Shown: positions 31,052 through 64,000, numbered from the stretch's first letter. The stretch is DNA of 64,000 nucleotides from Candidatus Dadabacteria bacterium (GCA_040289575.1 PSLL01000006.1:24583-88582); one strand, 5' to 3'. Translations and numbers: made by a program. The notes: generated by a model not told the origin, from the sequence alone.

Positions 31052-31400
31052 ATGAGCGAACGCCCTTGTCCTCTAATTGATTTTAAACACGTCTCTGTTA
31101 GTCGTGGAAACAGAACCGTTCTACACGATATAAGTCTCAAGATTTAAACAGGCAAGCACGTCGCCATCTTAGGACCAAACGGCTGCGGCAAAACCACGTT
31201 GATTAAAACCATTATGCGTGAGTGTTACCCAATAGTAAAGGACGGCTCATCTCTAACCATCCTAGGTCAGGAGCAGTGGAATATATTTGAGCTAAGATCA
31301 ACGCTGGGTATTGGGTCTAATGACCTGATGATTGACTACATCGGTGAATTCAGCGGGAGGGAGGTCGTTATTAAAGAAGCTTGCGTAATATATGTCGAAA
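31052..31400 (+). pseudogene. Remnant of an ABC transporter ATP-binding protein (ModF-half-like): in-frame TAA 31 codons in, then truncated after ~115 codons
   Basis: ATG at 31052, then …DISLKI-TAA(31145-31147)-TGKHVAILGPNGCGKTTLIKT… (Walker A) continues in the same frame. Homology ends near 31385, before the AT-rich leader of the SDR gene. Confidence 0.6.
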
Positions 31401-31457
31401 TCAGTTTAAGTCATACTGTCTATTTTGAAAATAAATATAATAAGGAGGTAGAAATTA

Positions 31458-32219
31458 ATGAGACTCAATGGAAAGACAGCTATAATTACTGGAGGAGGAG
31501 AGGGTATTGGTAGGGCCACTGCCCTTCTTTTCTGTAAAGAAGGGGCAAAGGTTGGAATTACAGGAAGAAACAAAGAAAAACTCGACAAGGTTGTAAGGGA
31601 GGCTAAGGGAAATGGCGAGATCGTTGCCTTTCCGGGAGATGTATCTAAAGAAGAGGATGTGAAGAGAACGGTAGATGAATTTATTAAGAGGTTTAATAAG
31701 ATTGATATACTGTTTAATAATGCCGGTGTCCTTGAGGTTGGAACCGTAGTTACAACCTCCGTTGAGGCATGGGATAAGATAATAGACATTAATGTAAAAG
31801 GCACTTTTCTTATGAGTAAGTATGTAATTCCCCACATGATAAAGAATGGAGGTGGCTCCATAATCAATAACTCCTCGGTTCTTGGATTCATTGGCTCTCC
31901 AAACTGCGTTGCATATAACACAACAAAAGGAGCGATAATGCAGTTTACAAGGAGCCTCGCCCTAGACCACGCAAAGCAGGGAATTCGTGTAAATACGATC
32001 TGCCCTGGATTTATAAAGACGAAGATGAATGAGGACTTCATTGGCAATCCCCCGGATGCACAGGAAAAGCTAGACCAGATAGCCGCACAGATTGTCCCTA
32101 TGGGCTATAGAGGAGAGCCTGACGATATAGCATATGCCCTCGTTTATCTGTCAAGCGATGAGGCTAAGTATGTTACAGGCGCCCACGTCGTAGTAGATGG
32201 CGGTTGGACGGCCTATTAA
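31458..32219 (+). CDS. SDR-family oxidoreductase (FabG-like short-chain dehydrogenase)
   Basis: TGGGEGIGRA cofactor motif, NNAG, and the catalytic YNTTK. Confidence 0.9.
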   Translation: MRLNGKTAIITGGGEGIGRATALLFCKEGAKVGITGRNKEKLDKVVREAKGNGEIVAFPGDVSKEEDVKRTVDEFIKRFNKIDILFNNAGVLEVGTVVTTSVEAWDKIIDINVKGTFLMSKYVIPHMIKNGGGSIINNSSVLGFIGSPNCVAYNTTKGAIMQFTRSLALDHAKQGIRVNTICPGFIKTKMNEDFIGNPPDAQEKLDQIAAQIVPMGYRGEPDDIAYALVYLSSDEAKYVTGAHVVVDGGWTAY

Positions 32220-32229
32220 AAAGATATTA

Positions 32230-32251
32230 GGGGCGACCAATCGGTCGCCCC
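32230..32251. terminator. Stem-loop GGGGCGACC-AATC-GGTCGCCCC immediately after the SDR gene stop
   Basis: Perfect 9-bp inverted repeat. No strong U-tract on the + strand. Shares the GGTCGCCCCTAC motif with the 23928..23970 terminator. Confidence 0.4.
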
Positions 32252-32441
32252 TACCCGAAATTAAAACATTTCCCCTCATTATGTGGTGAGTTATTGGTTT
32301 AACCCCCGGCTAATTCATAGAGGGTGTCCCTACCCTTTTGACTCATTGTAGACCAGATTGGAAATAAGTAGTATGCAAGGGTAATCTAAAATGATTATCG
32401 TGGATTTGATAGGTTGATCAAATTCAAGGGGTTTTATTGAA

Positions 32442-33344
32442 ATGGCATTAAACATCGCCTTACTGGTCTTCTTGGTTGTAACATGGGGATACTCATGGGT
32501 TTTGATGAAAATCGGATTGGGATTCATGGGTCCCTTTACGCTTGCAACGTGGCGATGTGCGGTCGGAAGTTTAGTTATGTTTCCGCTTCTCAAAGGGATT
32601 CCCTGGCCAAAGAGGGAAAAATGGCCGTATTATGTCGTGGTGGGACTCACTCAAACAACAGGGATGTTTGGGCTTATGCTCCACGGAATGAAGTTTGTCA
32701 CAGCGGGAAAGACATCGGTTCTTCTCTACACTATGCCTATGTGGACGAGCCTTGTTGCCCATTTCTATCTCAAGGAAAAGCTCAGTGCCACACGGTGGTT
32801 CGGGGTTATAAGCGGCGGTATAGGAATCCTCTGCATTCTCGGATGGGATACTCTAGTAAACCAGAGTGCCCAGATTCTATTTGGAGAGTTCCTGGTTATC
32901 ACGGGAGCGGTTTCATGGGCTATTGCAAATATAATAATCAAAAAACAATTGCCCAACGAGAACGCATATATGGTAAACGGCATGCAGATGCCTATAGGAA
33001 CTTTGGGTCTTGCACTCCTGGCGCTCCCAGTTGAGGGGCTATGGCACATCAAATGGACCTGGGTATCCATTGGTGTCATCCTATTTACAGGTGTAATTGC
33101 CTCTACAATAAACTTTACAATCTGGTTTTATCTTCTAAAAAAGCTAGATACACATACCGCCACCTCCGCAACAATGCTTGTACCTGTGTTTGGGCTTCTG
33201 TTTGATTGGATACAATTGGGCAAGACACTAGATACAGGCGTTATCATTGGCGGTGTATTCATATTAGCAGGAATCTATCAGGTGTCTAAACGCCAAAAAT
33301 CGGATAAAGAGTATGGCAGACGTAAGGAAGCGGCTTCTCAATAA
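32442..33344 (+). CDS. EamA/DMT-family transporter
   Basis: ~10 TM helices in two EamA repeats. Confidence 0.75.
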   Translation: MALNIALLVFLVVTWGYSWVLMKIGLGFMGPFTLATWRCAVGSLVMFPLLKGIPWPKREKWPYYVVVGLTQTTGMFGLMLHGMKFVTAGKTSVLLYTMPMWTSLVAHFYLKEKLSATRWFGVISGGIGILCILGWDTLVNQSAQILFGEFLVITGAVSWAIANIIIKKQLPNENAYMVNGMQMPIGTLGLALLALPVEGLWHIKWTWVSIGVILFTGVIASTINFTIWFYLLKKLDTHTATSATMLVPVFGLLFDWIQLGKTLDTGVIIGGVFILAGIYQVSKRQKSDKEYGRRKEAASQ

Positions 33345-34131
33345 CATAGAAGGCGAGTTTTTTGTAGACTCGGCATGCATCAATTGCGATACATGCCGCC
33401 AGATTGCCCCCGAAACATTTGAAGATGCAGGGGATTACTCGTTTGTCTATTCTCAGCCCAAGACCAAAGGGGAAAGACGGAAGGCGATGAGGGCGCTTCT
33501 GTCATATCCCACAGGCTCAATAGGAACACTGCATAAGAATAATGCCAGGGAAGTCATGGAAGATTTTCCTCTCCATATAGGGGACGAGGTGTATTACTGC
33601 GGATTCAATTCTCCAAAGTCTTATGGCGGAAACTCATATTTCGTACGTCACACCGAAGGGAATTGGTTCATAGACTCGCCGAAATACATAGGTCATTTGG
33701 TAAAGAGGCTCAATGAGGTAGGCAGAATTAAGTACATATTTCTAACACACAGGGATAATGTGGCAGATGCAAAGAAATATGCCGAAGAATTCGGAAGCCC
33801 AAGAATCATACACCGGGCTGAGCTATCGGCTCAGCCAGACGCAGAGATAATAATTGACGGTAATGAGCCAGTGCAAATTTCCCCCGATTTTCTGGTCATA
33901 CCTACGCCCGGACATACCCGCGGCCACTGTGTGCTGCTCTATAAAAACCGTTTCCTGTTCACAGGCGATCACTTATGGTGGAGTAGAGACGATAAGCAAC
34001 TTTCCGCATCCGAAGATGTGTGCTGGTATTCATGGCCTGAGCAGATAAGGTCGATAGAGAGGCTTCGGGACTTCACATTTGAATGGGTGCTTCCGGGTCA
34101 CGGTCAGAGGGTGAAACTCCCCTTCAATTAG
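33313..34131 (+). CDS. MBL-fold metallo-hydrolase with an N-terminal ferredoxin-like cysteine cluster
   Basis: N-terminus FFVDSACINCDTCRQIAPE (ferredoxin-type Cys motif). Downstream metallo-beta-lactamase motifs (LTHRDNVADA, PTPGHTRGH, GDHLW). Confidence 0.65.
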   Translation: MADVRKRLLNNIEGEFFVDSACINCDTCRQIAPETFEDAGDYSFVYSQPKTKGERRKAMRALLSYPTGSIGTLHKNNAREVMEDFPLHIGDEVYYCGFNSPKSYGGNSYFVRHTEGNWFIDSPKYIGHLVKRLNEVGRIKYIFLTHRDNVADAKKYAEEFGSPRIIHRAELSAQPDAEIIIDGNEPVQISPDFLVIPTPGHTRGHCVLLYKNRFLFTGDHLWWSRDDKQLSASEDVCWYSWPEQIRSIERLRDFTFEWVLPGHGQRVKLPFN

Positions 34132-34188
34132 ATGCGGAAAGAACTGACAATACTGATTAAAAGAAGTAAAGGGTGAGGAGTTAGGAAA

Positions 34189-34533
34189 TCAATCTTGAGG
34201 AAATCGCTGAGAGCGTATAAGACCGGAGAGCATTTTATCAATCTTTATAGTATCAATATCTTTCCAAGTTTTTCCCTCAATATATTTCAACCGCTTTGCT
34301 AAATCTATCTGAGTATCCAATTCACTAAGGGAACCCTAAGATATGTTAAGGAAATTGATGAATTCTTTTTTGGTATTTCTTGCGGCTCCTTCTGCAATAT
34401 TGCTCGGTATACTAATTGCTGCTCTACGAATTTGGTCAACTAAAGAAAATTTCTCTTCTTTAGGAAATTTATCAGTTAACTTATAAACCTCAGTTACTAA
34501 ATCCATTGACAACATCGTCCTTTTACTCCTCAT
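34189..34533 (-). pseudogene. Four-helix-bundle protein (TIGR02436 family, '23S rRNA intervening sequence protein'-like) interrupted by an in-frame TAG
   Basis: The N-terminal 65 codons (…KFPKEEKFSLVDQIRRAAISIPSNIAEGAAR…) end at a TAG at 34336-34338. The same frame continues GSLSELDTQIDLAKRLKYIEGKTWKDI… to 34189, giving the expected ~115-aa family length. Confidence 0.6.
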
Positions 34534-34563
34534 CCCTTACTTCTTACCTTTCACCCTTTGAAA

Positions 34564-37424: not shown

Positions 37425-37500
37425 TGGAGCGGGCGACGGGATTCGAACCCGCGACCCCAAGCTTGGGAAGCTTGTACTCTACCAACTGAGTTACGCCCGC
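37425..37500 (-). tRNA. tRNA-Gly(CCC): tRNA-Gly (anticodon CCC)
   Basis: The minus-strand 76-nt sequence GCGGGCGTAACTCAGTTGGTAGAGTACAAGCTTCCCAAGCTTGGGGTCGCGGGTTCGAATCCCGTCGCCCGCTCCA folds as a canonical cloverleaf with a CTTCCCAAG anticodon loop and an encoded CCA. Confidence 0.9.
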
Positions 37501-38545: not shown

Positions 38546-39730
38546 ATGAACCAACTAAACTCAATCTTTAATAAACAAGAAAAACTGGTGGTGGGTCTAA
38601 TGTCGGGCACGTCTATGGACGGGATTGACGCCGCCTTGGTAAGGATTAAAGGGCACGGATTGGAAACTAAAATTGATCTGATTGAGTTTATTTGCCTGCC
38701 ATATCAATCCCCTCTTCTTCAGAGCTTAGAAGAGGCAACCCTAAAAGGCTCAACACGCCAAATCTCAGAAATTAACTTTCTCGTAGGCAGGGCATTTGCA
38801 GATGCAGCTTTAGCCGTAATTAGAAAAGCCGGAATGCAGGCTGCAGACATTGACTTAATAGGCTCTCACGGTCAGACCGTTTTTCACAACCCCCCCTCTT
38901 CAAAAATTGGCGTCCCCTCTACACTTCAGATTGGAGAGTTGGACGTCATTGCTGAGCATACGGGAATAACCACAATCGGCGACTTTAGAACCCGCGATGT
39001 AGCCGCAGGGGGTGAAGGTGCACCTCTTGTTCCTTATGCGGATTACATTCTATTCTGCAAATCCGGGAAAGCCCGTATCGCTCAAAACATTGGCGGTATT
39101 GCAAACGCCACAGTAGTTGCCGAGTGTATAGATGATGTAATTGCGTTTGATACAGGGCCGGGGAATATGCTCATGGACAACGTACTGAGATTGGTTACGA
39201 ATGGGAAAGAAAAATATGACATTGATGGAAAGCATGCTTCAGGAGGCTCGGTTAATAAAGGTCTACTCGAGAAGCTTCTATATCATCCATTCTTCATTCA
39301 GCCACCTCCAAAATCCACAGGGGCAGGGGTTTTCGGAAAGGAAATGGCGCATGAGATTTATACACTGTCTAAAGAGAAAGGGATTTCACTGAGTGATTTG
39401 ATGAGGACACTCTTAGAGCTCACAGTTGAATCTATTGCCCTTTCTTACGAGCGATTTATCTTCCCCAAAAGGAAAATTGAAGAAGTAATCCTGAGCGGCG
39501 GGGGCGCTAAAAACCCAGTCCTGGTAGAAGGATTAAAAAAGAGATTGAATCAATTGGAATTTTCTAATTCGGATAACTACGGAATTCCGGCGGATGCGAA
39601 AGAGGCCATAGCCTTTGCCATATTAGCAAATGAGCTTATATCAGGTAATTTTACGAATCTTCCATCCGCTACGGGAGCAAAAAGGCACGTGCCTTTGGGG
39701 AAGATTGTTCTAGGCGAGGGGAATCTGTAG
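38546..39730 (+). CDS. anmK: Anhydro-N-acetylmuramic acid kinase AnmK
   Basis: N-terminal LVVGLMSGTSMDGIDAALV motif. Full-length AnmK-like. Confidence 0.9.
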   Translation: MNQLNSIFNKQEKLVVGLMSGTSMDGIDAALVRIKGHGLETKIDLIEFICLPYQSPLLQSLEEATLKGSTRQISEINFLVGRAFADAALAVIRKAGMQAADIDLIGSHGQTVFHNPPSSKIGVPSTLQIGELDVIAEHTGITTIGDFRTRDVAAGGEGAPLVPYADYILFCKSGKARIAQNIGGIANATVVAECIDDVIAFDTGPGNMLMDNVLRLVTNGKEKYDIDGKHASGGSVNKGLLEKLLYHPFFIQPPPKSTGAGVFGKEMAHEIYTLSKEKGISLSDLMRTLLELTVESIALSYERFIFPKRKIEEVILSGGGAKNPVLVEGLKKRLNQLEFSNSDNYGIPADAKEAIAFAILANELISGNFTNLPSATGAKRHVPLGKIVLGEGNL

Positions 39731-39781
39731 AAATTTATATAGGGGCAATTCATGAATTGCCCCTACTGAATCTAAACCCAA

Positions 39782-41305
39782 ATGGATAATCCCAACCCAA
39801 ATGAACTCACTATACCGCAAAAAATCGGTCAAATTGTCATGCCCAGGCTGAATTTCAATAACCCGGATGCCTTGCCTTATGCAAAAGATATTGTTCAAAA
39901 ATTTCATGTTGGAGGCTTTATTATTTTTGGCGGCGATCGCAAACAGGTAAAGAGAGCAACAGAGGAGCTTCAATCAATTTCCCTAACCCCTCTCTTTTTC
40001 TCATGCGATGCCGAGCGCGGCGCGGGTCAGATAATGTCTGGAGCAACTCGGTTTCCCTTTACAATGTCGCTTGGAGCAACAGGAGACGAGGAACTTGTCT
40101 ATAGACAAGCCAGATTCATTGCAGAGGAGTTAAAAGAATGCGGATTAAATCTAGTCTTTGCGCCGGTTATGGATGTAAATACAAATCCGGAAAATCCGAT
40201 TATAAATATTCGCTCTTATGGAGATGATCCCTCCCTTGTATCGCGCCTTGGAACCGCTTTTATCAAAGGTTGTCAAGACAGAGGCGTGTTGGCTTGTGCT
40301 AAACATTTCCCAGGGCACGGAAGGGTTGCTATTGATTCTCATGTAACTCTGCCCCAACTAGCCCAAAGCCGGGAAAACCTCTATACGTGCGATATAATCC
40401 CATTTAAAAGGGCAATCGAAGGCGGAGTTGCCTCTATTATGGTAGCACATATCGCCGTACCCAAGATTGACCCTAAAGGAGTCCCGGCAACGATTTCGAG
40501 AGAAATCATCCAAGGTCTCCTTATTAATGATCTGGGATTTAAAGGTTTAGTCATAACAGACTCTTTCTATATGGGTGCTATAGCCAATTTAGGCACGGAG
40601 GAAGATATGGCACGCCTTTCTATCCTTTCAGGATGTGACATTATTCTCGATCCAAAAGAACCCGTAAGGACTATGAAAAGACTAAGCGAAATGGTTAAAT
40701 CGAGAGAACTTTCGGAGTCGCTTTTAGACAGCACTGTGGAAAAGATAGTTGCAACAAAAAGACAATGGTTAAGTAATCAGCCTCTTAAAAATCCATTTGA
40801 TGAAACATATGGTCGGGCTCTACTCACTGAGATTGCACACCGCTCTGTCTGCCTTTTAAAAGGTGGGAGACTGAAATCCAAAAATGTAACGGTTTATATC
40901 CTTGATGTAACCCAGGCTGAGGAAGATGTCTCAGAGTCATTCGTTGATCACCTATCTGAATCCGGAATAGGCATTGAGAAAAGGTCCTTTACCCTCTCAG
41001 AGACATTTTTACCTCAAAGCGAGAACAATGACAGAACAATAATTTGTCTCGTCTACACATCTGTTGCCGCATGGAAAGGGCACACAGAATTATCCGAATC
41101 GTTCAAGGAGCTGTTAAGGCAGGTAAACAAGCTGAAATGTGAGAGGGTTTTAATCTCGTTTGGATCTCCCTACATAGTTCGGGATTTTGAAAACTTTGAT
41201 ACGATTCTCTGTGCCTTTGACCGCCTGGATGCTTGCCAATGTGCAGTGGCCGATGTCCTTTTAGGAAGAGGCGAGGCTCAAGGAAAATTGCCGGTGAGGC
41301 TGTAG
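39782..41305 (+). CDS. nagZ: Glycoside hydrolase family 3 beta-N-acetylhexosaminidase (NagZ-like) with a C-terminal extension
   Basis: GH3 motifs (KHFPGHG…D); 507 aa. Confidence 0.8.
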   Translation: MDNPNPNELTIPQKIGQIVMPRLNFNNPDALPYAKDIVQKFHVGGFIIFGGDRKQVKRATEELQSISLTPLFFSCDAERGAGQIMSGATRFPFTMSLGATGDEELVYRQARFIAEELKECGLNLVFAPVMDVNTNPENPIINIRSYGDDPSLVSRLGTAFIKGCQDRGVLACAKHFPGHGRVAIDSHVTLPQLAQSRENLYTCDIIPFKRAIEGGVASIMVAHIAVPKIDPKGVPATISREIIQGLLINDLGFKGLVITDSFYMGAIANLGTEEDMARLSILSGCDIILDPKEPVRTMKRLSEMVKSRELSESLLDSTVEKIVATKRQWLSNQPLKNPFDETYGRALLTEIAHRSVCLLKGGRLKSKNVTVYILDVTQAEEDVSESFVDHLSESGIGIEKRSFTLSETFLPQSENNDRTIICLVYTSVAAWKGHTELSESFKELLRQVNKLKCERVLISFGSPYIVRDFENFDTILCAFDRLDACQCAVADVLLGRGEAQGKLPVRL

Positions 41306-41435
41306 TTAAAGCTTTATATATGTGGAATATTGAAATTTTTGATTAGAATATACTATTTCGCATTGCCAAAAATATTATTTTGTTCTTTAATATCAGACCA
41401 AATAATTATTATTAAATCTCCAGGAGGAATAAACT

Positions 41436-41975
41436 ATGAGAGTCCTTCCGTTAACATTAGGTTTGATACTCGGTCTTGTGGGAGTAACTTATGCTCAATC
41501 GGCTGCAAAAATCGGTTATGTGGATATTCAGCGTGTGATAAGTGAATCCAAAGCCGGTATAGCCGCCAGCGCCGCTCTTCAGGAAGACCTTAAGAAAAAG
41601 GAAGATATAATAAACCAGGAAGCTAAACAGATTATCCAAATGAGAAATAATTTTATGAGCAAAAATTCCGTTATGAGCAAAGAAGCACAAGAGCAAGAAG
41701 CCGATCAAATAGAAAACATGGAGAAGGAACTCCATAGAAAACGTGAGGATTTTCGAGATGCTTTAGCAGAGCAGGAATCGAACCTCAAAGAGAAAATACT
41801 AAGTGATGTGGTGAGAATAGTAAACGAAATAGGGAATTCCGAGGGATATAGTTTAATAGTTGAAAAAAGCGAAGCGGGTGTTCTATATGGGAGCAAAAGT
41901 GCCGACATTACAGATGAAGTCATACGCGCCTATGATAAAAAATACGAAGAAAAGAAAGGCGTCTCAAAAAGGTAG
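41436..41975 (+). CDS. OmpH/Skp-family periplasmic chaperone
   Basis: Signal peptide plus a coiled-coil OmpH domain (GYVDIQRVISESKAG…). Confidence 0.8.
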   Translation: MRVLPLTLGLILGLVGVTYAQSAAKIGYVDIQRVISESKAGIAASAALQEDLKKKEDIINQEAKQIIQMRNNFMSKNSVMSKEAQEQEADQIENMEKELHRKREDFRDALAEQESNLKEKILSDVVRIVNEIGNSEGYSLIVEKSEAGVLYGSKSADITDEVIRAYDKKYEEKKGVSKR

Positions 41976-42152
41976 TCGGCACCTTATTTTTTATCATTAT
42001 TACCCGATCCCTGTCCTTTCCTTCAGCCGTGATTTGCCCGTTTATAATCCCTTACAAACACTAATCAGACGGATTTGGTATGACTTATCCGAAATAACAA
42101 AACAAATTATGGATTTCTCTGCGCTGAGCTATAAAATATAAGATCCAATATA

Positions 42153-43910
42153 ATGCCCAAATCCATTCAATCCATCCTATCCGCCCTGAGCCTTATTGAT
42201 TGGCTGATTGTTATTGCTTATCTACTTCTGTCACTCGGAATCGGCATATATTTTACAAGGCGGGCAAGCAGGAGTATGTCCGAATATTTCGTTTCTGGAA
42301 GAAACCTATCATGGTGGATTATTGGAACATCAATGGTTGCAACAACGTTTTCAGCCGATACGCCGCTTGTCGTCACCGGGTGGGTTCGAACGGATGGAAT
42401 CTGGGAAAACTGGTTCTGGTGGAATTATCTCTTCAGCCATGTCTTTATCATATTCGTTTTCTCAAGGCTCTGGCGACGTGCGGAGGTGATTACGGATAAT
42501 GAGCTTATAGAGCTCAGATACAGCGGAAAGCCCGCAGCGTTTCTTAGAGGATTTAAGGCGCTTTACTTTGCAACCATTTTTAACTTCATCGTAATGGGCT
42601 GGGTAATAAGCGCGATGGCAAAAATCCTAAGGGTGTTCTTCGGGTTTGAAACGACCTTTGCCGTCATTATATGCATATCAATTGCATTCATATACACAAC
42701 CATGTCTGGGCTTTGGGGTGTAGCATTTACCGATTTCTTCCAGTATTTTGTCGCCCTTTTTGGAACGACTGCGCTTGCAATAATTGTAATAAACTCACCC
42801 GCCGTCGGGGGTTTCTCCGGTTTCCAAGAAAAATTGGGCGGGCTTGGGAGCCACCTTTCATTCTTTATGACTCCATCCGGTGGAAGGCCCGTGAGCGATG
42901 GTTTCTGGTCTTCCAGTTTTTTTATTTTTCTCGTTTATATATCGGTCATATGGTGGTCTTCACACAATTCAGACGGTGGAGGCTACTTCATCCAAAGGAT
43001 GTGTTCTGCAAAAAACGAGCGCCATGCTATACTGGGAATGGCATGGTTCTCGCTTAACCAATACGTAATACGCCTTTGGCCCTGGGTTTTAGTGGCCGTT
43101 TTCTCTTTGATTGTTTACCCAACCGCTAAGAAGGCCGGGGGTGATGAGGAAGCCATGTATGTCATAGTTATTCGTGATTTCCTGGGGCCCGGGCTCAAGG
43201 GTCTGCTATTTGTGTCCTTCCTTGCCGCATTCATGTCCACAATAACAACACAACTCAACTGGGGAGCCTCTTACTTGATGAACGACGTTTATAAAAGGTT
43301 TATTAATAAGAATGGAACAGAGGGTCATTATATCCTTGTTTCGAGAATATGCACATTGATACTGACTATTCTTGCGGGGTATTTTGCCTTCCATATAGAG
43401 AACATTGGGAAGGCATGGATCTTTCTCTGGGCAATGAGCGCGGGAATCGGTCTTGTCCTCATACTCAGGTGGTTCTGGTGGCGTATAAACGCATGGTCTG
43501 AAATCTCAGCCCTGGGTGCTTCTCTAATCACAATCCTGTTTTTAACACTGTACGCAGATTTCAAGGGCATATCGCTTGAGCTTAAGCACCAAATTATAGT
43601 TGTTCCCGTCTCAATCCTATCATGGCTGATTATTACCTATTTGACTAAACCCGAACCGGAGGAGACACTTCTCAATTTCTATAGAAAGATCCGTCCCTGG
43701 GGATGGTGGAGCCCTATCTCAAAAATAATTCCGGAGATAAAGCGTCCCCCGTTTATGCCTGTAATCATCAACTGGCTTCTCGGAATCAGTTTCATATTCT
43801 TTGCTATGATTGGTATTGGAAAGCTCCTCCTCGGCGCCCCTACCATTGGAGCAATTATGGTCTTAATTTCTATCTGCTCCGGGGTTTTGGTCTATATGAA
43901 TGTGAGGTAG
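42153..43910 (+). CDS. Sodium:solute symporter family (SSF) transporter
   Basis: SSF N-terminal signature (YFTRRASRSMSEYFVSGRNLSWWIIGTSMVATTFSADT). Confidence 0.85.
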   Translation: MPKSIQSILSALSLIDWLIVIAYLLLSLGIGIYFTRRASRSMSEYFVSGRNLSWWIIGTSMVATTFSADTPLVVTGWVRTDGIWENWFWWNYLFSHVFIIFVFSRLWRRAEVITDNELIELRYSGKPAAFLRGFKALYFATIFNFIVMGWVISAMAKILRVFFGFETTFAVIICISIAFIYTTMSGLWGVAFTDFFQYFVALFGTTALAIIVINSPAVGGFSGFQEKLGGLGSHLSFFMTPSGGRPVSDGFWSSSFFIFLVYISVIWWSSHNSDGGGYFIQRMCSAKNERHAILGMAWFSLNQYVIRLWPWVLVAVFSLIVYPTAKKAGGDEEAMYVIVIRDFLGPGLKGLLFVSFLAAFMSTITTQLNWGASYLMNDVYKRFINKNGTEGHYILVSRICTLILTILAGYFAFHIENIGKAWIFLWAMSAGIGLVLILRWFWWRINAWSEISALGASLITILFLTLYADFKGISLELKHQIIVVPVSILSWLIITYLTKPEPEETLLNFYRKIRPWGWWSPISKIIPEIKRPPFMPVIINWLLGISFIFFAMIGIGKLLLGAPTIGAIMVLISICSGVLVYMNVR

Positions 43911-44074
43911 AAACAACATAAGGGTGACAAAATAAAGGAAACTCTATATATTAAAACACACAGAAAATCTAATACTTGTAATTGCTTATACTGAAATTCC
44001 TTCTGTATGAGGAATTATCCTATTTGATTCGCGAATTTGAAATTAGAAGAATAATTTGTTAGAATTAGCAGAGG

Positions 44075-45946: not shown

Positions 45947-45967
45947 AACTAGAGGGGGAAAAGACGA

Positions 45968-46981: not shown

Positions 46982-46993
46982 GATATTGAATCG

Positions 46994-47017
46994 TAGGGGG
47001 CAAATGGCCGCCCCCTA
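46994..47017 (+). terminator. Stem-loop TAGGGGGC-AAATGGCC-GCCCCCTA after korB
   Basis: 8-bp perfect inverted repeat 13 nt after the korB stop. The downstream U-tract is weak. Confidence 0.35.
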
Positions 47018-47130
47018 CAATGTGTCTGCCCCCCGATTAAGTTATTTAGAACCATAAAGTAGAGTATATCCATTATAGATAGGACATTTCCATAGAGAAA
47101 TGGTATAATTTTTCTTGAGGAAGATTCCGA

Positions 47131-47718: not shown

Positions 47719-47750
47719 AGACAATTAACTCCTGATAAAGACAAAAGGTT

Positions 47751-48782: not shown

Positions 48783-48787
48783 TCAAG

Positions 48788-52479: not shown

Positions 52480-54272
52480 GGTCTTGTTATCTTAACAATC
52501 GCTTCCTCGGGCAGTGCATAAATCCATGTAAGCCCCCGGCGCAAAAGGAATGGGCGTCCAAATAGGTCGTGGAATTGGATCGGATCACTACCGTGAATTC
52601 TGTACCAGGTTGCCCCCTCTGATCTGGGGCCACACCAAATCTGGGCTGGGCCCTCTCCATATGTATCAATTCGCAGCCGTCCCTGAATGTCGCCGGGGAT
52701 GTTGGTCACACGTACCCAAATTAGAACCAGGTTGGCAATCAAGAGATTGGGATCACCCGTTGCATCCTCACCCACCGGCGTATTGAGAACCGTCCGTCGG
52801 AATCCCCCGGCCAAACCGTCCCACTCGAATCGTTCTGGATAGGGAGCACGGGGACGCGAATGGACCTCAATCCGTACTCGCGCCGTTCCCTCGTCATCCC
52901 GAATTGCCTCATCTCGGAAAATAGTAGAGAGTCCCGGACAGTAATGCGCAATTAGATTAATACCTGCTGCTGTTGATTGCTCTAGACCTATAGGGGAAAT
53001 TATGGTCAGTTTATCCAATTGCCCAAAGATACGCTCGGGAACAATAAAGATATTATGCGGAGGAGTCCGCCCGTCTTCTGTCGCAAGAATCTGTGCATTC
53101 TGAAGAACCTCAGGCTCACCAGATGCACCTATATGATAACGGTATTCAATATCAATCACGCGCTCCAGATGCTCGAGAAGAGTCCGTGATTCGGGGCTTC
53201 CACCGCAGTGGACATAGAAAGGCTGATAGGCTCCGGCCCACTCGATAAAATATGGCCGGGCGCTCCGTACCGGTCCCACTCTGTCACTGAAAATCCGGGT
53301 GAAGACAGGCATAAGACGCGTCAATCCACCTTCAACTGGAGCCTCGATGATAAGGGATGCACCAGCCAATCCCAGCTGTGGATGTGAACGGCTAGAGTTG
53401 TCAACCATCACCGCAGGCAAGCCGCACCAGAGGTCAATTCTATTTTTATCACCATCAGATGCATTGCTTCTTACTACCATTGGAAAAGACGCCACGCGAG
53501 TTTCAGGAAGTATCCAGTCAAATGCGGCACTGAAGGCATAAGTCTCAGGCAGTCGGCGATCGGCAAGCCGGTGATATTCCATAAGTAACAGATACAATGG
53601 CCTGTATAAGAATCGTGACCTCAGCACCAGTCGGCATAAGAGCAGATAGAGACTCAAGATTCGGGATCGATGTCCCAGTTCATTATTGAACATCCACAGC
53701 GCCGTCACCGGCTGAAGGAGGCTGCTCTTGTTGACTGTAATCGTCTCGTTCTCAACGAATCCCTCATGCTGAAGGAGGAATTTCGTGTACCGGAGCGAGC
53801 GAAGACCATAATATCCCACGGCGTCTATGTGATGACGAGTATATTCTTCTGGAAAGCACTTTGCCCAACGAATAATGGGTTTCGATGAATCCAGGTCTAC
53901 AAAGAAAATCAAACGCCCGCCCGGACGAAGCACACGTTTAATCTCGCGCAATGCGGCGACGAATTGCCTCTCAGTTAGGTGCTCGAACATCCAAATACTC
54001 ACCACCGCATCCACTGAACGATCTGATAAAGGCAGCCGCTCGACCTGTGAACGAATGACCCGATTGTATATTGATGCGGCGCTCTGAAGCGCCCCGGCGC
54101 CATAATCCACTCCCGTTACACGTCCAAATTCTGTCAGAAATTCCCAGCCGCCACCGCAACCCAAGTCAACGATCTCTAATGGATAACGACCAAGCCGTGC
54201 CAGCATCGGTCGCAAAAGATGGGTATGCCCCAGTGGATATTCCGCCGGAGCAACCACCCCAACGGTCCCCAA
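52476..54272 (-). CDS. Class I SAM-dependent methyltransferase fused to a ~400-aa C-terminal domain of unknown function (possibly DUF3048-like); GC-rich compositional outlier
   Basis: Motif I VDLGCGGGW and post-I LRPGGRLIFFVDL. The C-terminal domain contains GGLTRLMPVFT…GPVRSARPYFIEWAGAY. Local GC is visibly higher (~55%) than the flanks (~35-40%). Confidence 0.7.
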   Translation of the reverse strand: MGTVGVVAPAEYPLGHTHLLRPMLARLGRYPLEIVDLGCGGGWEFLTEFGRVTGVDYGAGALQSAASIYNRVIRSQVERLPLSDRSVDAVVSIWMFEHLTERQFVAALREIKRVLRPGGRLIFFVDLDSSKPIIRWAKCFPEEYTRHHIDAVGYYGLRSLRYTKFLLQHEGFVENETITVNKSSLLQPVTALWMFNNELGHRSRILSLYLLLCRLVLRSRFLYRPLYLLLMEYHRLADRRLPETYAFSAAFDWILPETRVASFPMVVRSNASDGDKNRIDLWCGLPAVMVDNSSRSHPQLGLAGASLIIEAPVEGGLTRLMPVFTRIFSDRVGPVRSARPYFIEWAGAYQPFYVHCGGSPESRTLLEHLERVIDIEYRYHIGASGEPEVLQNAQILATEDGRTPPHNIFIVPERIFGQLDKLTIISPIGLEQSTAAGINLIAHYCPGLSTIFRDEAIRDDEGTARVRIEVHSRPRAPYPERFEWDGLAGGFRRTVLNTPVGEDATGDPNLLIANLVLIWVRVTNIPGDIQGRLRIDTYGEGPAQIWCGPRSEGATWYRIHGSDPIQFHDLFGRPFLLRRGLTWIYALPEEAIVKITRP

Positions 54273-54502
54273 CCACGCTGCTCTCGGTACGACGTTGTCC
54301 AGCGGCTATCATGCGGAATATCACCCTCGACGAATCTGGCAATACCGTCTTCCACCAGCCAGGGACCGTGACCCGCTGTGCACACTAAAGTTCCCCGACC
54401 GTTTTTTACATCACACTGAAGGGCAATGTGACAATCGGGGCAGATCAGATCATCGGATCGGAAGGACATAAGGTTGTGAACCCTATCATATAGAACATTC
54501 AT
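54176..54502 (-). CDS. Trm112-like zinc-ribbon ORF overlapping the annotated start of the methyltransferase (possibly its frameshifted N-terminal domain)
   Basis: LICPDCHIALQ…LVCTAGHGPWLVEDGIARFVEG matches the Trm112/YcaR CPxC…C…(aromatic)x[IV]xDGI[PA]x[FLM][LV] pattern. The 3' half of the ORF overlaps the MTase ORF in another frame. Confidence 0.45.
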   Translation of the reverse strand: MNVLYDRVHNLMSFRSDDLICPDCHIALQCDVKNGRGTLVCTAGHGPWLVEDGIARFVEGDIPHDSRWTTSYREQRGWGPLGWLLRRNIHWGIPIFCDRCWHGLVVIH

Positions 54503-55426: not shown

Positions 55427-55640
55427 CCGGAATTGATATAACTAGCTCTTTCATAAATATCAGTATTATATTGTGTAGTCTCATATCGATACCATTGATT
55501 GAGTATTGTTTCAAGCTTCCGGTAGAATCTGCTTTACCACATTCGACCAAGCTCGATCAATTAATATAAGTTTGGGTACTTTCTTGGTTAGATCATTCAT
55601 TATTTCCTGTTTGGTGCTCTTCCTTGCAATAAAGGTCAAA

Positions 55641-57030
55641 TTAAAATATCGGCTTGCTGATCTCCTCTGGGAATAAGCCTGGACTGGATTTGTTTGTATG
55701 ATCTCCTAATATGTATATGTAATCGTTGTTTTTAGTGTGTTCCTTTATCCATAGACCTAGCTGTTTATATCGCCCATATTCATCGTCGACACCTTTAATA
55801 TTTATACTATAAAACCTGTAAAGGGTTTGGTATGGTGCCCACAATATTGCTATTATGACTATAGTCTGGACGATGTATCTTCGCCTCTCTGTTTCTCCAA
55901 TTAAGTTAGCTTGAAATAACACATTGATTGCTATTCCAGAGGCGAGCGCTATCGACGGTAGAATTTGTTTGAATTGATGTCCCAAATAATATCCAGATGC
56001 ATTTACACCTAGAAAATCCAAGCCGATCCAGAAAACAATGCCTCCAAATGGTATCTTATTATCTATTATCCTTTTTTCTGGACAATAAATAGTAAGATCA
56101 ATGGATAGAATAAAACTATTTTAGAATGTCCCCAAGCATCAATAAACTTCCCAATCCTTATTTTATAATCGGCACTGCCCCCTTCCTTCTGCATTAAAAT
56201 TAACCATGCATCCTTGAAGTAATCAATCATAGTAACGCCACTTGCCAAAAGAGGAATTAAACTGAGACACATAGGAAACACAACAGCTGCGAATAAGAGA
56301 AATGAATCTCTAAAAGTACTTTTATAGGTTAAGGAACGTTTATCACCTAAGCCTAATAAAAATGCAAATAGTGCAATAGCACTAAGTATTGCAGTTTGCT
56401 TAAAAGCAATTGCGATTCCCATAAAGAATCCAGCAATTAAGGTGTCTCTAATATATAATAAAAGGCTTCTTGCTTCCTGGGCCTTTAAAAGAAATAAGAA
56501 AGCGAGAGTTGAAAATAAAACCATGAATGATTCAGTCTGTGCGGTATATGCTCCATCCATCAGCCTTCAAATCATGCTGAAGCCAAAGAGAATCATAGTG
56601 AGGACACCAACTAAATGATTGCATAATTTTCGTCCAATTATATAAAGTAAAATTGAAGTCGTAACAATAGATAAGCTAGCCAGAATTCTCGGAAACCAAA
56701 TATTTAGATCGAATAGAAGATTGGAAATGACAAATACTATATAGATGCCCGGAGTCTTATTCTCAATGGCTCCGATGTATAGAGGAATCCCATACTTAAT
56801 CCATAGAAAAGCAATATAATTCCACATCCCCTCGTCATTGCCCATGTATTCACTGAAAGATGCAATTAGAAGCAGGGAAAAATAATTATTGCTACTATAA
56901 TAGGACTGGTCACAACCCTATAAAGACTATTATATAAACCCATCTTATTCATACTTTTCGGTCTCAAAAAATAATCTCTTGTCAAGACCAATTCTTTCTC
57001 CAAATGACTATTTACATGGAAAGAAAGCAT
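55641..57030 (-). pseudogene. Second GT39/GT83-like (ArnT/PMT_2-type) membrane glycosyltransferase, broken by two frameshifts and an in-frame TGA
   Basis: Consecutive minus-strand pieces: 56863..57030 (first TM helix), 56567..56845 (DEGMWNY…ENKTPGIY loop motif), 56066..56560 and 55641..56021. A TGA at 56567-56569 separates two pieces in the same frame. Confidence 0.6.
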
Positions 57031-57131
57031 TATTCACCTCTATCTATAGCCGTATCCGTTCCCTGAATAGCCACCTAAGGTTCTATGTATGTAATCACAA
57101 CTAGATGAGAATAGGCTAAATTATAAAGTAA

Positions 57132-58796: not shown

Positions 58797-58804
58797 TGTT
58801 CCTT

Positions 58805-59488: not shown

Positions 59489-59498
59489 TTATAAAGTC

Positions 59499-60353
59499 TC
59501 AGTTATGATTATCTTTATTTGCACTTACTGGTATTTCCAGCCAGTGTGAAAGGTCGCGCCTCAGGATGTCCTGAGTCTGTAATATATCCTCCCGGTAATA
59601 TTCAATCAGCCACTCACGCACCTCAGTCTGAAGCTCCGGTTTTCTTAGATTGCTTTGCCTAAGTCCCCCTAGAATCACGTCCCAGACCTTTAGTCGAAGT
59701 TTTAGTCGAGTCTTCTCAGATAAGAACGGTCTCAATATATCCGAGATAAAATTCGGCTGAGTTAGAAAGGTGTTAAGCTTCACATTTATTGGATAACCGG
59801 AGACATTATGTCTGGCTGGGGCCTTGATCACAAGTTTCCCATCCAAATCAAGGAATTGAACTATACTCTTGATTAATTCCCTTGGATTCCGCTGCAAATC
59901 CTCAAAGAGGAAAACCCCAATCTGCTCATGGCAAAAAAGAGACAAATATCGCGCAATCTGTTCAGCGTAAAGCCCCATTCTTCGATAAAACCAGAACGGA
60001 GACCAACCATTACGCATCCTTTCTTCCTCCGCATTGATCGCTTCTCTAAAATCATCGAGATTTTCATACTCCAAAAGTCTGTGATGGAGAAAGTGAGAGT
60101 ATGCCCTGTCTATTGGATTGCGCAGGATAGCTATGATTTTGACATCCGGTATATAGTGCTTAATTCGATAAGGGGCTTTTGGGCTATAAAGGTAAAGAGG
60201 AGAAGCTTCTCCAATAGCCTTCTCATCCCGAACCCCGGAAAAGAGAGAACAATAGGTTTTAATGTCTCGTATCCCTTGGTTATCTTTAGGTCCCCGAAAC
60301 GGTTCGCTTTCCCCTTCGACCGCAAAGAATAGTGGCTCCTTTATAGAACTCAT
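59499..60353 (-). CDS. Sulfotransferase-family protein lacking the N-terminal 5'-phosphosulfate-binding loop (probably truncated)
   Basis: 3'-phosphate-binding motif RNPIDRAYSHF and the IKEPLFF region typical of PAPS sulfotransferases. No K-x-G-T-T loop is encoded. The ATG overlaps the TGA of the upstream GT4 fragment (ATGA). Confidence 0.6.
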   Translation of the reverse strand: MSSIKEPLFFAVEGESEPFRGPKDNQGIRDIKTYCSLFSGVRDEKAIGEASPLYLYSPKAPYRIKHYIPDVKIIAILRNPIDRAYSHFLHHRLLEYENLDDFREAINAEEERMRNGWSPFWFYRRMGLYAEQIARYLSLFCHEQIGVFLFEDLQRNPRELIKSIVQFLDLDGKLVIKAPARHNVSGYPINVKLNTFLTQPNFISDILRPFLSEKTRLKLRLKVWDVILGGLRQSNLRKPELQTEVREWLIEYYREDILQTQDILRRDLSHWLEIPVSANKDNHN

Positions 60354-61108
60354 GAAAATCTGCGGGTTCCGATTACGTGTAAATGAATATCCTCACCATG
60401 CAACCTCACTTCCGACAATATATCTATTATATTTTCTAATCTCTTCTCACCAGAAATCCTCCCAATGCATACAAAACCATTCTCTCTCTCCTGCCAGGGC
60501 ACATCTGGGAAGAGACCGGGAACTGGAGGATATACAGTTGTCGTCTCAATTCCATAAGATTCTCTGCACTTGATTCCGGTCCAGTCCGAATTTACCAGGG
60601 TGAGGTTCTCTTTCATTCTTTCAAACGAATAACCCGAAATCGCCATCCATGGCCGGTACTGACCACGCACTATACCCCATAGGCATTGATACCAAGGAAG
60701 ATCAACGAACTGCTGGCATATAGGCTCGAATCGAGGAAACCAGGGGTAGTGAACATATTGGATTCCCCTGCAGCCGAGGTCAGCCTCCCCGTTGGCGGTG
60801 ATAATAACATCGTAATCGCCATTCATCTTCTTGCACAGGCGCATGAGAAAGGCAAACTTTTGTGCGCTGTGGGGGTCGGGGTCAAGCTCTATTAAACCGC
60901 GTATGAGCCGGGGAGTATAATAGACCTTGAAATCAGATGAGCTGAGAGATGTTCCAAAGAACCGGTTGATCGCGGCAACACTAACGGGTGCCCAAGTCAG
61001 AACAGAAACCGAGTTTTCTCGTTTCAGAGCTTCAATCATCCATACTGCCACAGCATTTCCACCGCCCAGTGGCTCAAGGCTGGGCTGCACAAGTAAGACC
61101 TTTTTCAT
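60350..61108 (-). pseudogene. N-terminal two-thirds of a GT4 glycosyltransferase (paralog of 62150..63331) lacking the C-terminal catalytic half
   Basis: ~60% identical over 250 aa to the N-terminal domain of the 393-aa GT4 at 62150..63331 (…NLTLVNSDWTG…TTVYPP.P..FPDVPW.ERENGFVCIGR…HLH.IGT). It then terminates where the full copy continues for ~140 aa. Confidence 0.65.
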
Positions 61109-61129
61109 CGAGGACGTCTATGAAATCGG

Positions 61130-62146
61130 CTACAGACTTATGCCAGGCAATTTTAAATTCTCACATTCCGCTTCAACTGTTGGAGCAGATATACTGCCAT
61201 CTCCTGCGGAACGCAGCATATTCAAACTATCCTGTAAATTGTACTCCCACTTATCCAATAGATGATTCATGATTTTTGGGTTGTCGGCTAACTCTCTGAT
61301 GGAGCGTCTTGGCACACCGCCCGTAGGAGATATACCCAGCGGAAGGTCCTGCCATATTACTCCATCAAAATAAGCCTGCATATTTCGCCAAAATAATTCA
61401 TGGGATTGACTTGCTAGAGCCATGTCAAAGACATTTTTAGCATACATATACTCCTTATTCCACATATATGACAGGTTATTTCTCCTATATAAATCCGCCC
61501 TTGACTCCAGCTTCTTAAGGTAGTTCACAGGAAAAATCGCCCGATACCTGTAGAACGGCTGGGGTAAGTAGTAGGTGTGCTCTCCCTTCGCGTACAGCAA
61601 ATAATCCCTTAGTTTACGGGAGCGAAACACAAAACGCTTGAGGTCGTAACCGACATCATAGGCATCGCCTTTTGAGATTATATATTCCTTGTTTTTAAAT
61701 AGCCTCCTCCTAAAATCCACAATCCAGAGTAGTCTACTCCCCATTATGTTATAGAACGGCAATCTGAACATCTCCACGTCTGGGTAAAGAACGGGTAGGT
61801 TTCTGATCTCTTCTAGGGAGGATTCATGTATTATCTCGTTTGCCTGAACATAAAGACAGTAACTGCCAGTACATCTCTGTTTTAAAAGATTGGTCATCGT
61901 CGCAAGGATTTCACCCCTCTCCGTTTTGCCCCTCCATTCGTCTCTGAAGAGTCTGACCTTGCCGGGGAACCTTCTCTCTAAAATTTGCAAGGCTTTCCAT
62001 GTCTTATCCGATGAATAGCCTTCGGATATAAGGAACTCGTCACAAATAGGCAGAGCGGCTGTTATAGCCTCTATAAACGGGTATCCCTGCGATACGACGT
62101 TTTTCAATATCATAAAGCCCGATATGGTCACTTTTTCTACAGGCAT
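61130..62146 (-). CDS. Putative GT-A-fold glycosyltransferase, uncharacterised (338 aa)
   Basis: N-terminus ISGFMILKNVVSQGYPFIEAITAALPICDEFLISEGYSSDKT resembles uncharacterised GT2-like proteins of glycan loci. The call is weak. Confidence 0.35.
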   Translation of the reverse strand: MPVEKVTISGFMILKNVVSQGYPFIEAITAALPICDEFLISEGYSSDKTWKALQILERRFPGKVRLFRDEWRGKTERGEILATMTNLLKQRCTGSYCLYVQANEIIHESSLEEIRNLPVLYPDVEMFRLPFYNIMGSRLLWIVDFRRRLFKNKEYIISKGDAYDVGYDLKRFVFRSRKLRDYLLYAKGEHTYYLPQPFYRYRAIFPVNYLKKLESRADLYRRNNLSYMWNKEYMYAKNVFDMALASQSHELFWRNMQAYFDGVIWQDLPLGISPTGGVPRRSIRELADNPKIMNHLLDKWEYNLQDSLNMLRSAGDGSISAPTVEAECENLKLPGISL

Positions 62147-62149
62147 GGT

Positions 62150-63331
62150 TTACACCCATCGAGTCTTCTGGAATTGTCTTACGATTTCCTGAATATCACT
62201 CATAAATTTCTCTGTCGAGAACAGCTCTTTTCTTGATCTCAAGTAGTCAATCAATGACATTTGCTCATCTGGATTCTCTATCACGCGTACAATCTTCTCG
62301 TTTGCTTCCTCTTCAGTCCTATAAACCAGACGTTCATCCCCTCCTACAATCTCCAACTGCCCGCCGCTGTTATGAACAAAGGCTATACAACCCGCTTTGA
62401 TCATCTCTCCCACCGCAATCCCGAAATGTTCCTCTATGTTTGCGTGAATTCCGTACCTGTGCCTGGAAATCAGATTTATAAGCTTCTCTCTCGATAAGTT
62501 TTCGTGTAAGAGAACCCAAGGAGAATTTTCTCTTACAACTCTTATAAGTCTTGAATAATATTCGCTTTCACCTATGAATGGGCTAGGGGTTCCTATGATA
62601 TGTAAATGGAGATCGGGGATTCTCGCCCTGACCTTTGCAAGAATCTCTATTATCGTCTCAAATCTCTTCCCAGGGCAGAATCTCCCAATACAGACAAACC
62701 CGTTTTCCCTCTCATTCCAGGGAACATCAGGAAATTTGTCAGGAATCGGGGGATAAACTGTTGTAGCATCAATCCCGTAACGTTCCTTAACTTTATTTCC
62801 CGTCCAATCCGAGTTAACGAGGGTAAGATTATCTTTCATCCGATTGTATGAAAAACCTGAAATCAGCATCCAGGGCCTATAACTGCCTTTCAATGCTTCC
62901 CAAAACTTTCGATGATGAGGCAAATCAATATCGGGTTGAATCTTTCCGTATAAATAAGGATAGTGAAAATACTGTATTCCCCGACATCCGAAGTCTATTT
63001 CATTCTCGGTGGAGATTACTACATCATATTTGCCATTCAACCTCTTGCATAAGCGCATCAGGTAGCTCTGCCTCTGAATACTTGCGGGATCGGGGTCTAG
63101 GTTTATAATGCCACGCAAAACGGGGTTAATATGATGCACAGTAAGCTCTGAACTCTTAAGTGAAGTGCCGTAGAAGCGGTTTATCTCCTCGAAATTAGGA
63201 GATTTCCAGGTTAGTAATGAGACTGAATACTCCTTCTTCAACGCCTCAATCATCCAGGCCGCAACCGTGTTTGCGCCCCCAGGGGGTTCAAGAGTGGTTT
63301 GAACAAATAAGACTTTTTTCATAGATGACAT
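62150..63331 (-). CDS. Glycosyltransferase family 4 (full-length copy)
   Basis: GT-B N-terminal domain plus a C-terminal Glycos_transf_1 domain (…EHFGIAVGEMIKAGCIAFVHNSGGQLEIV…). Confidence 0.8.
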   Translation of the reverse strand: MSSMKKVLFVQTTLEPPGGANTVAAWMIEALKKEYSVSLLTWKSPNFEEINRFYGTSLKSSELTVHHINPVLRGIINLDPDPASIQRQSYLMRLCKRLNGKYDVVISTENEIDFGCRGIQYFHYPYLYGKIQPDIDLPHHRKFWEALKGSYRPWMLISGFSYNRMKDNLTLVNSDWTGNKVKERYGIDATTVYPPIPDKFPDVPWNERENGFVCIGRFCPGKRFETIIEILAKVRARIPDLHLHIIGTPSPFIGESEYYSRLIRVVRENSPWVLLHENLSREKLINLISRHRYGIHANIEEHFGIAVGEMIKAGCIAFVHNSGGQLEIVGGDERLVYRTEEEANEKIVRVIENPDEQMSLIDYLRSRKELFSTEKFMSDIQEIVRQFQKTRWV

Positions 63332-63354
63332 TCAATAATTCTACAAACTATTAG

Positions 63355-64000
63355 CTACATGACACGTTCATTCTTTCTCTCCCAGTTAATGTACTTAAAC
63401 TTGTTAAAATACGTGTTGAATACATCGGCAAAATCGCCATGTAATATTCTGTCAGCCACATACTTAAACTGATGGATCAATCTTTTTGAACGATATGCAG
63501 GTATCAAAATATCCGTCTTTTCTTTATTGTCGGATGCGAATAATTTTATCTTTTCAACTATATAAGGGAAAAGCTGATAACGGTACAATACGAGATTTCT
63601 GGCCTCCTCTAAAGCCGAAATACGCTTTTCCTAGTCATCCCGATCTATAATCTCCCTTATCTTTTTCAAACTAGCCTCTGGTTGATCTACATCAATTCGT
63701 ATAAAAGACTCTTTGGGAAAATACTCCTCTAGATTCGTACAACCATAGTATATGGGAACCGTCCGGGTAAGAAAGCAATCCGCTACTTTTTCTGTCCAGT
63801 AATCAGGACCGCTACTGTTCTCAACCGCAAGCGAGTATTTATACGGAGCCAGTCCGTCCCACTTGTCCTTGACACATCTGATTCCTCTTCCGAATACGTC
63901 TATATTGAACCTGGCATTTTGCCTGAGGAAATCCAAGAGTGCCATCTTTTTCCTATGCCCCGGAAGAAACGTCAGTTTGCTTGTAACCCAAGATATAGCC
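63355..64000 (-). pseudogene. GT10 (alpha-1,3/4-fucosyltransferase-like) gene, C-terminal part, with an in-frame TAG at 63631-63633; the N-terminus lies beyond the window end
   Basis: GT10 signature YKYSLAVENSSGPDYWTEKVADCFLTRTVPIYYG. The frame is open upstream of the listed Met to position 64000. A TAG separates two ORFs that are in the same frame (…IREIIDRDD*EKRISALEEARNLVLYRYQLFPYIVEK…). Confidence 0.6.

Follow-up and report, generated by a model that had tools for sequence, protein, structure and literature searches.

The stretch of DNA analyzed here, hereafter the window, comprises 64,000 nucleotides of a metagenome-assembled genome (MAG) of Candidatus Dadabacteria bacterium (GCA_040289575.1, PSLL01000006.1:24583-88582). 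About 13 of its roughly 55-60 genes are disrupted, against four in sister strains of the same organism. Comparison with those strains, a check proposed in the original prediction made from the window's sequence alone, splits the lesions into a class shared by all strains, which is gene decay, and a class private to the MAG. The shared lesions lie in genes for a four-helix-bundle protein, a GT10 fucosyltransferase-family protein, a GT39-like protein (GT39-like #2) and an ABC ATPase, and these four are real pseudogenes. The private lesions strike transport genes and a surface-glycan cluster, and for them we lean toward real, recent decay in an isolated founder population, judging from assembled sequences only. 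Free-living bacteria typically carry a few per cent of pseudogenes and the window is well above this, so that the high lesion density first claimed for it holds.

Results

Assemblies compared

The window lies on a 127,415-bp contig of the MAG (NCBI proteins MER34460xx, locus tags C4291_) and very likely, though this is not proven, originates from Tramway Ridge, Mt Erebus. For that site, 454-Ti reads assembled with Newbler and Illumina HiSeq assemblies have been described, together with the MAG 'Candidatus Dadabacteria bacterium ERB_12', of medium quality and with a G+C content (GC) of 44.2% (Herbold et al. 2024, PMC11657696). The GC of the window, 42-46%, is in line with that figure. Contigs labeled 'ERB_' in JGI metagenome 3300003453 tile the window from 27051 to 63465, a tiling that does not include 53408-54155, and mismatch it at three bases only. 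They are probably a second assembly of the same reads and not an independent check.

The same organism occurs, at about 99.9% identity to the window, in assemblies of four other sequencing runs: SRR13254584 (Mt Melbourne soil, Illumina; PMC7953305), SRR29483437 (Mt Melbourne, PacBio HiFi; PMC11413225), SRR29483436 (Mt Rittmann, PacBio HiFi; PMC11413225) and SRR29089225, to which no site is assigned. Together these sister assemblies span 1340-20530 and 21563-64000 of the window, and the four agree among themselves at essentially every position that differs from it. All comparisons reported here are at the consensus level, between assembled contigs. The outgroup is JGI contig Ga0070737_10005372 (L095), from a related species, which is syntenic with window 22092-33364 at 78-87% nucleotide identity; it was recovered in a scan of metagenome contigs with an MFS fragment of the window, a scan that returned no additional Erebus contig. 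Among the matches listed, the nearest relatives of the window's PurH are in Dadabacteria and Thermodesulfobacteriota MAGs at about 70% identity, and a PurH search of genome contigs did not recover the same species, the best of the matches listed being 72% identical.

Pseudogenes shared by all strains

The in-frame TAG codons of the four-helix-bundle and GT10 genes, the TGA and three frameshifts of GT39-like #2 and the truncation of the ABC gene are not sequencing errors, because they recur in independent assemblies. The GT10 TAG and, in GT39-like #2, the TGA and the three frameshifts are found in both SRR13254584 (Illumina) and SRR29483436 (PacBio HiFi). For the ABC truncation and the four-helix TAG, the assemblies are SRR13254584 and SRR29089225, at least one of which is Illumina. 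Translation in three frames around each site recovers all four in-frame stops originally reported (31145, 34336, 56567 and 63631). Consensus error, one of the causes then suggested, thus fails for the shared lesions, which are reproduced independently, but the private lesions remain candidate MAG artefacts.

The four-helix-bundle gene (34189-34533, minus strand) belongs to PF05635, the 23S rRNA IVS protein family, and has its TAG at 34336-34338 in all assemblies. The PF05635 match crosses the stop, covering profile positions 9-104 of 106 (E = 2.5e-35), and the TAG aligns with the Arg of '...IARGSLSELDTQ' in PDB 2GSC.

In the GT10 gene (63355-64000, minus strand, with its 5' end beyond the window) the TAG at 63631-63633 is likewise present in all assemblies. 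Intact relatives are exactly 342 aa long, are 70-84% identical and span 100% of the read-through product. Each of the seven intact homologues aligned has Trp at the stop position, which makes the change one of TGG to TAG. The lesion is young, since the 91 codons downstream of it are still well conserved. Elsewhere in the gene, Arg replaces a Trp found in all seven intact homologues (CFLTWTVP to CFLTRTVP), a change also present in the Melbourne and Rittmann strains; on sequence grounds we read it as a second sign of lost constraint. Just past the 3' end of the window, sister contig L009 (7216-7659) holds a 147-aa open reading frame (ORF) that adjoins GT10 and matches Stealth_CR2 only. Stealth proteins are about twice this length, and the ORF may be another truncated gene of the glycan cluster.

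GT39-like #2 (PMT_2; 55432-56937, minus strand) is an old pseudogene that has been hit several times. Its TGA (56567-56569) lies within the PMT_2 domain and stands for the Trp of '...LSV(T/S)W(K/R)FM(D/N)GTYTAQTE'. Homologues are 505-508 aa long, and tblastn with one of 508 aa returns five collinear segments in frames -2, -1, -3, -1 and -2. There are thus four frameshifts in addition to the TGA, not the two frameshift sites first proposed; three of the four (at about 56880, 55690 and 55525) are common to all strains.

The ABC ATPase remnant (31052-31513, plus strand) is truncated in every assembly and keeps only positions 1-45 of the 137 of the ABC_tran profile. The outgroup is without the remnant: there the OEP and SDR genes adjoin (L095 2406-2408, compared with window 31045-31437, 392 bp).

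Intact full-length homologues or sister ORFs span each gene tested, in agreement with the first account, in which homology ran straight through the lesions. That account further took every lesion to be a recent point event, which does not apply to GT39-like #2 with its several old hits, nor to two of the private lesions, which are deletions of 10 and 11 bp.

Lesions private to the window

Outside the window, the private lesions appear only in the JGI 'ERB' contigs; the intact state of the affected sites is found in one to three independent assemblies per site. Every frameshift in the original list is present, though several differ in nature, place or number from what had been described.

Two adjacent efflux genes carry deletions that had been taken for single-base frameshifts. 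The MFS_3 transporter gene (22569-23887, minus strand; 442 aa in sisters) is frameshifted by the loss of 10 bp after 23408, where the sister carries GGCACCGTTT (plus strand). The RND efflux pump gene (23894-27139, minus strand; 1046 aa in sisters) has lost 11 bp after 24229, with GGCC microhomology on either side. The outgroup retains both the 10 nt and the 11 nt, and both deletions are therefore derived in the window.

A third transport gene, for a KimA-like AA_permease_2 protein (18563-20392, minus strand), is intact at 609 aa in the sister; in the window a TGG (Trp) codon has become TAG at 19343-19345. Directly upstream lies a cyclic di-AMP (c-di-AMP) riboswitch of the ydaO/kimA type (20468-20604, minus strand, 98 bits), which fits the permease being a KimA-like K+ importer. 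The second private nonsense change adds to a gene that was already dead: at 31145-31147 of the ABC remnant the sisters have CAA (Gln) and the window TAA, interrupting '...HDISLKI*TGKHVAILGPNGCGKTTL' just ahead of the Walker A motif.

The remaining private lesions lie toward the 3' half of the window. GT39-like #1, a GT-C-like membrane protein (48788-50417, minus strand; called as 509 or 542 aa in sisters), has an extra T at 49508, in ...GTAA[T]ATAG... and outside any homopolymer; the shift had been placed in the CCCCC run at 49480. Its 'GT39-like' label is tentative, the sole support for it being a weak precomputed PMT_2 match. In the gene for a protein with Zn-ribbon, S-adenosylmethionine-methyltransferase and DUF3048 regions (52476-54502, minus strand), GGGG has become GGG at 54220, and a 33-bp in-frame deletion at about 53408 drops 11 residues (VDEENRGRRPV); the window copy further has three non-synonymous changes and no synonymous one. 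Sister strains encode this gene as one protein, of 686 aa in SRR13254584 and of 675 aa, from a later start, in SRR29483436. The initial single-gene reading of the locus was therefore correct. The 'Trm112' label given to its N-terminus gained no support from Pfam, which returns no Trm112 match. One Mt Melbourne HiFi contig (L007, SRR29483437) is short of one C at window 52804, giving a call of 587 aa, which is either a private variant or an assembly error in that run.

In the already dead GT39-like #2, a T7 tract of the sisters is T6 in the window (56071, minus strand). The largest event lies in the glycan cluster (59499-61108, minus strand), where 2,439 bp are missing at the junction 60364/60365 and the sisters have four intact genes. 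The deletion cuts a GT1 gene from 378 to 252 aa, removes a sulfotransferase gene and a Glyco_trans_1_2 gene, and takes the first 31 residues of a second sulfotransferase along with its GxxRSGTT motif. The permease TAG, the 33-bp and 2,439-bp deletions and two of the GT39-like #2 frameshifts are additions to the lesions first reported.

The private deletions of 10, 11, 33 and 2,439 bp show 1-7 bp of microhomology, and five of the seven private indels are outside homopolymers. Across the window, only two of 1,134 homopolymer runs of at least 4 nt differ from the sister strains. Homopolymer error of the long-read kind, which had been offered as a general explanation, can be set aside in that role, although the two sites themselves still allow it.

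Exact-protein look-ups with four window-specific fragments (the MFS N-terminus, the 252-aa truncated GT1, the 99-aa ABC fragment and the 108-aa methyltransferase N-terminus) matched only JGI 3300003453 or nothing, and so these four look-ups recovered no independent Erebus assembly of the private lesions. An independent ENA contig bears on the 3' end of the window: ERZ1673967 NODE_3609 (L094; SPAdes, 2.5x coverage, sample origin not assigned) corresponds to window 62062-64000 and carries the window allele at 63235 as well as the TAG at 63631. Two more deletions are private to this contig, one of 21 bp in GT10 and one of 41 bp in the GT1 gene (window 62278-62318); they may be decay variants or single-read artefacts.

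Pattern of the changes

Overall divergence between the window and the sister strains is about 0.04%, and disruptive events are about as many as synonymous changes. There are 25 substitutions; in 21 of them a G/C of the sisters is an A/T of the window, and four are the opposite (binomial p = 0.0009 against an even split). The coding substitutions comprise eight synonymous, 12 non-synonymous and two nonsense changes, and all eight synonymous differences are G/C to A/T in the window. Polarized with the outgroup, 24407, 28766 and 31793 are derived in the window, 26906 is derived in the sisters and 24263 is ambiguous. From the directional spectrum and the outgroup polarity together, it follows that nearly all the change took place on the branch leading to the window.

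The changes are also unevenly placed, in gene classes (transport, glycan, housekeeping) that we assigned by hand. Transport and glycan genes account for 62% of the compared bases yet contain all nine disruptive events (p ~0.014), two of them in genes already dead. The density of changes in already-dead genes is about four times the average (p ~0.02). Across 10.9 kb of housekeeping genes at 38651-49507 (AnmK, GH3, OmpH, SSF, PFOR, ferredoxin and ADH) there are no differences at all (P ~0.003). Synonymous to non-synonymous counts are 7:5 at window 1-38 kb and, for the glycan cluster, 1:9 (Fisher p = 0.03). Relaxed selection on a surface glycan, one of the explanations first offered, fits the single synonymous and nine non-synonymous changes at 50-64 kb, the genes with multiple hits and the 2.4-kb deletion.

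Other features of the window

Window 20530-21563 is outside the fetched sister contigs, one of which stops at 20530 while another begins at 21563. The region and its surroundings hold ORFs without a Pfam match (21278-21883, with 22026-22436 nearby), and it may be variable or hard to assemble. The sole tRNA gene in the window is tRNA-Gly(CCC) at 37425-37500 on the minus strand.

Discussion

We infer that real cells carry the private lesions as majority alleles and that a founder effect or relaxed selection is their cause. Under this explanation, old pseudogenes (the four-helix protein, GT10, GT39-like #2 and the ABC ATPase remnant) would have become fixed species-wide. A recent burst confined to the population of the MAG would then have added two nonsense changes, the 10-, 11- and 33-bp microhomology deletions, the 2.4-kb deletion and three one-base indels, striking the RND/MFS efflux pair, the KimA-like permease and, above all, the surface-glycan cluster. 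Ordinary spontaneous mutation would suffice to produce them, by G/C-to-A/T substitution, replication slippage and microhomology-mediated deletion. Such mutations could stay unpurged if the genes are dispensable at the site and if drift outweighs weak selection in a population with few founders. Were the population founded by a single migrant, that cell's private, mostly slightly harmful and A/T-biased variants would be kept, and the consensus of the large source population would stay near the ancestral state. The one-sided branch would arise because a founder clone is being compared with the consensus of a large population. Single-clone colonization has likewise been assumed for Erebus (Herbold et al. 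2024, PMC11657696).

Several observations weigh against this explanation. The statistical signals are modest (p 0.003-0.03) and depend on gene classes assigned by hand. Change is nearly one-sided, with 21 of 25 substitutions being G/C to A/T on the window's branch, and errors or DNA damage would leave this pattern too. Overall there are 14 non-synonymous or nonsense changes to eight synonymous ones, which is near the unselected expectation. At three of the 25 substitutions (28766, 33729 and 59949) the JGI contigs agree with the sisters and not with the window; two of the three are G to T. Two of the indels (G4 to G3 and T7 to T6) are under-called homopolymers such as 454 produces, and 454 was used at the site. 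Lastly, the JGI 'ERB' contigs, being probably the same reads, give no independent confirmation.

These same observations feed the most serious alternative, in which the private lesions are products of MAG building. They could stem from consensus errors (454/Newbler or mixed coverage), from damaged molecules or rare variants that entered the consensus, or from the path taken through a strain bubble. Intact genes would then be expected at Erebus, as in the Melbourne and Rittmann relatives, and the species-wide pseudogenes would still be real. That all private differences fall on the MAG branch suits this alternative. So do their spectrum of G/C-to-A/T and G-to-T changes, which is compatible with deamination or oxidation damage too, the near-neutral proportion of non-synonymous to synonymous changes overall, the two under-calls and the disagreement of the JGI and NCBI versions at three of 25 sites. 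The JGI contigs (L004, L001, L008, L093 and L011) end at 27051, 33729-33742, 53407, 54156 and 57109-57111. Two of these ends coincide with variable sites, 33729 and 53407 (the 33-bp indel), which hints that both sites are polymorphic within the Erebus sample. The 21- and 41-bp private deletions of the 2.5x ENA contig likewise hint that small deletions may be single-read variants or artefacts, and no Logan assembly of the Erebus Illumina runs contains these genes.

Assembly artefacts would, however, be expected to fall without regard to gene function, and the differences do not: none occurs in the 10.9-kb housekeeping stretch, and dead genes and the glycan cluster hold more than their share. 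Homopolymer runs match the sister strains in 1,132 of 1,134 cases. Four of the seven indels are microhomology deletions (10, 11, 33 and 2,439 bp), unlike the errors of a platform or an assembler; to our knowledge, deletions with short microhomology are not among the errors of either. A contig as long as 127 kb argues against very low coverage and implies a depth at which the consensus follows the majority allele; a separate SPAdes assembly, moreover, shares the window allele at 63235. On balance we regard an artefactual origin of the private lesions as unlikely, though it is the alternative that we take most seriously.

The resemblance to false pseudogenes in MAGs and draft genomes is similarly partial. 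Like those cases, the window comes from a project combining 454-Ti and Illumina data, shows two homopolymer under-calls and has its private differences all on the MAG branch. Unlike them, it differs at only two of 1,134 runs, most of its indels involve microhomology or lie outside homopolymers, and its differences track gene function. Moreover, four of its pseudogenes are reproduced independently, GT10 and GT39-like #2 in both HiFi and Illumina data.

The private lesions could also be real and yet stem from a raised mutation rate, either in a hypermutator with a repair defect elsewhere in the genome or through heat or oxidative damage at 65 °C. The branches are strongly unequal, synonymous sites included (all eight G/C to A/T, with the outgroup placing 26906 on the sister branch), and homopolymer slippage would fit, as would the spectrum of G/C-to-A/T and G-to-T changes. 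On the other side, mutL (11340-13148, plus strand) is intact and its protein is identical to the sister's, although this is a weak point; the other repair genes are outside the window; the sister sites are geothermal too; and comparison of a founder clone with a source consensus would give unequal branches at a constant rate. A raised rate seems to us improbable.

We give hardly any credence to the idea that the stops and shifts are functional, through stop reassignment, selenocysteine or pyrrolysine, programmed frameshifting or phase-variable glycan switching. Several lesions do lie in surface-glycan genes, two are in short homopolymers and three of the five in-frame stops are TAG. Yet the sister strains carry ordinary sense codons at the private stops, and the 10-, 11-, 33- and 2,439-bp deletions are irreversible. 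We rejected stop reassignment and selenocysteine or pyrrolysine recoding: the terminators of confident genes are TAA in 17 cases, TAG in 15 and TGA in 14, and all three codons occur among the five in-frame stops, of which three stand in place of Trp, one in place of Gln and one at an Arg-type position. Phase variation, proposed at the outset, was also rejected. The only candidate tracts are G4/G3 and T7/T6, and the T7 sits in an already dead gene with four other lesions.

Phase-variable glycosyltransferase genes with simple-sequence repeats are well known from Haemophilus, Neisseria, Campylobacter and Helicobacter (futA/futB). The window resembles these contingency loci in having frameshifts in surface-glycan genes, including GT10 fucosyltransferase-family and ArnT/PMT-like genes. 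The repeats of contingency loci are far longer than G4 or T7, however, and the window is without long repeats. In its GT10 gene a Trp has been replaced by TAG, a substitution that is fixed at all sampled sites, and the other lesions are either deletions that cannot revert or lie in tracts no longer than 7 nt.

A closer parallel to the decay that we favor is found in bottlenecked clonal lineages with unitary pseudogenes, such as Salmonella Typhi, Yersinia pestis, Shigella and Mycobacterium leprae. As in those pathogens, the window has many inactivating lesions at very low divergence (~0.04%), clustered in surface-polysaccharide and transport genes, with a G/C-to-A/T bias and genes hit more than once. 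The organism differs from them in being a free-living thermophile of fumarole or geothermal soil; the host-restricted lifestyle entertained in the original prediction is thus set aside, since the organism comes from geothermal soil. It also differs in showing no expansion of insertion sequence (IS) elements in the window, and the comparison covers 64 kb, with private lesions known from an assembled consensus. Among signs of a reductive genome, no IS element was seen within the window and the fetched loci, and MutL is intact.

It is tempting to take the founder explanation a step further. Tentatively, the Erebus population may be a recent single-clone offshoot of the Melbourne/Rittmann population that has fixed about one inactivating lesion per 7 kb at a divergence of about 0.04%, so that its surface-glycan cluster is dismantled along with an efflux system and a K+ importer under c-di-AMP control. 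Drift-driven erosion of this kind, in a free-living organism after island-like colonization, is a possibility that we consider worth stating even though we hold it less probable than not. Whichever account applies, the process is ordinary gene decay or is partly an assembly fault, and no new mechanism or kind of system is involved.

For annotation, four genes of the window are pseudogenes of the species and about nine more are broken only in this MAG. The broken genes should be neither silently 'repaired' nor counted as separate hypothetical proteins. Should the private lesions prove to be artefacts, they would counsel caution over pseudogene counts in MAGs. If they are true, three Antarctic volcanoes share one thermophile at 99.9% identity, and one of its populations has lost surface-glycan, efflux and K+-uptake genes. 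This bears on the debate over dispersal and endemism at these sites (Herbold et al. 2024; Noell et al. 2025). It would also offer a clean natural setting in which to study how founder effects and gene loss act on free-living microbes in isolation, one in which erosion would be directly measurable, as a near-ancestral source genome is still available.

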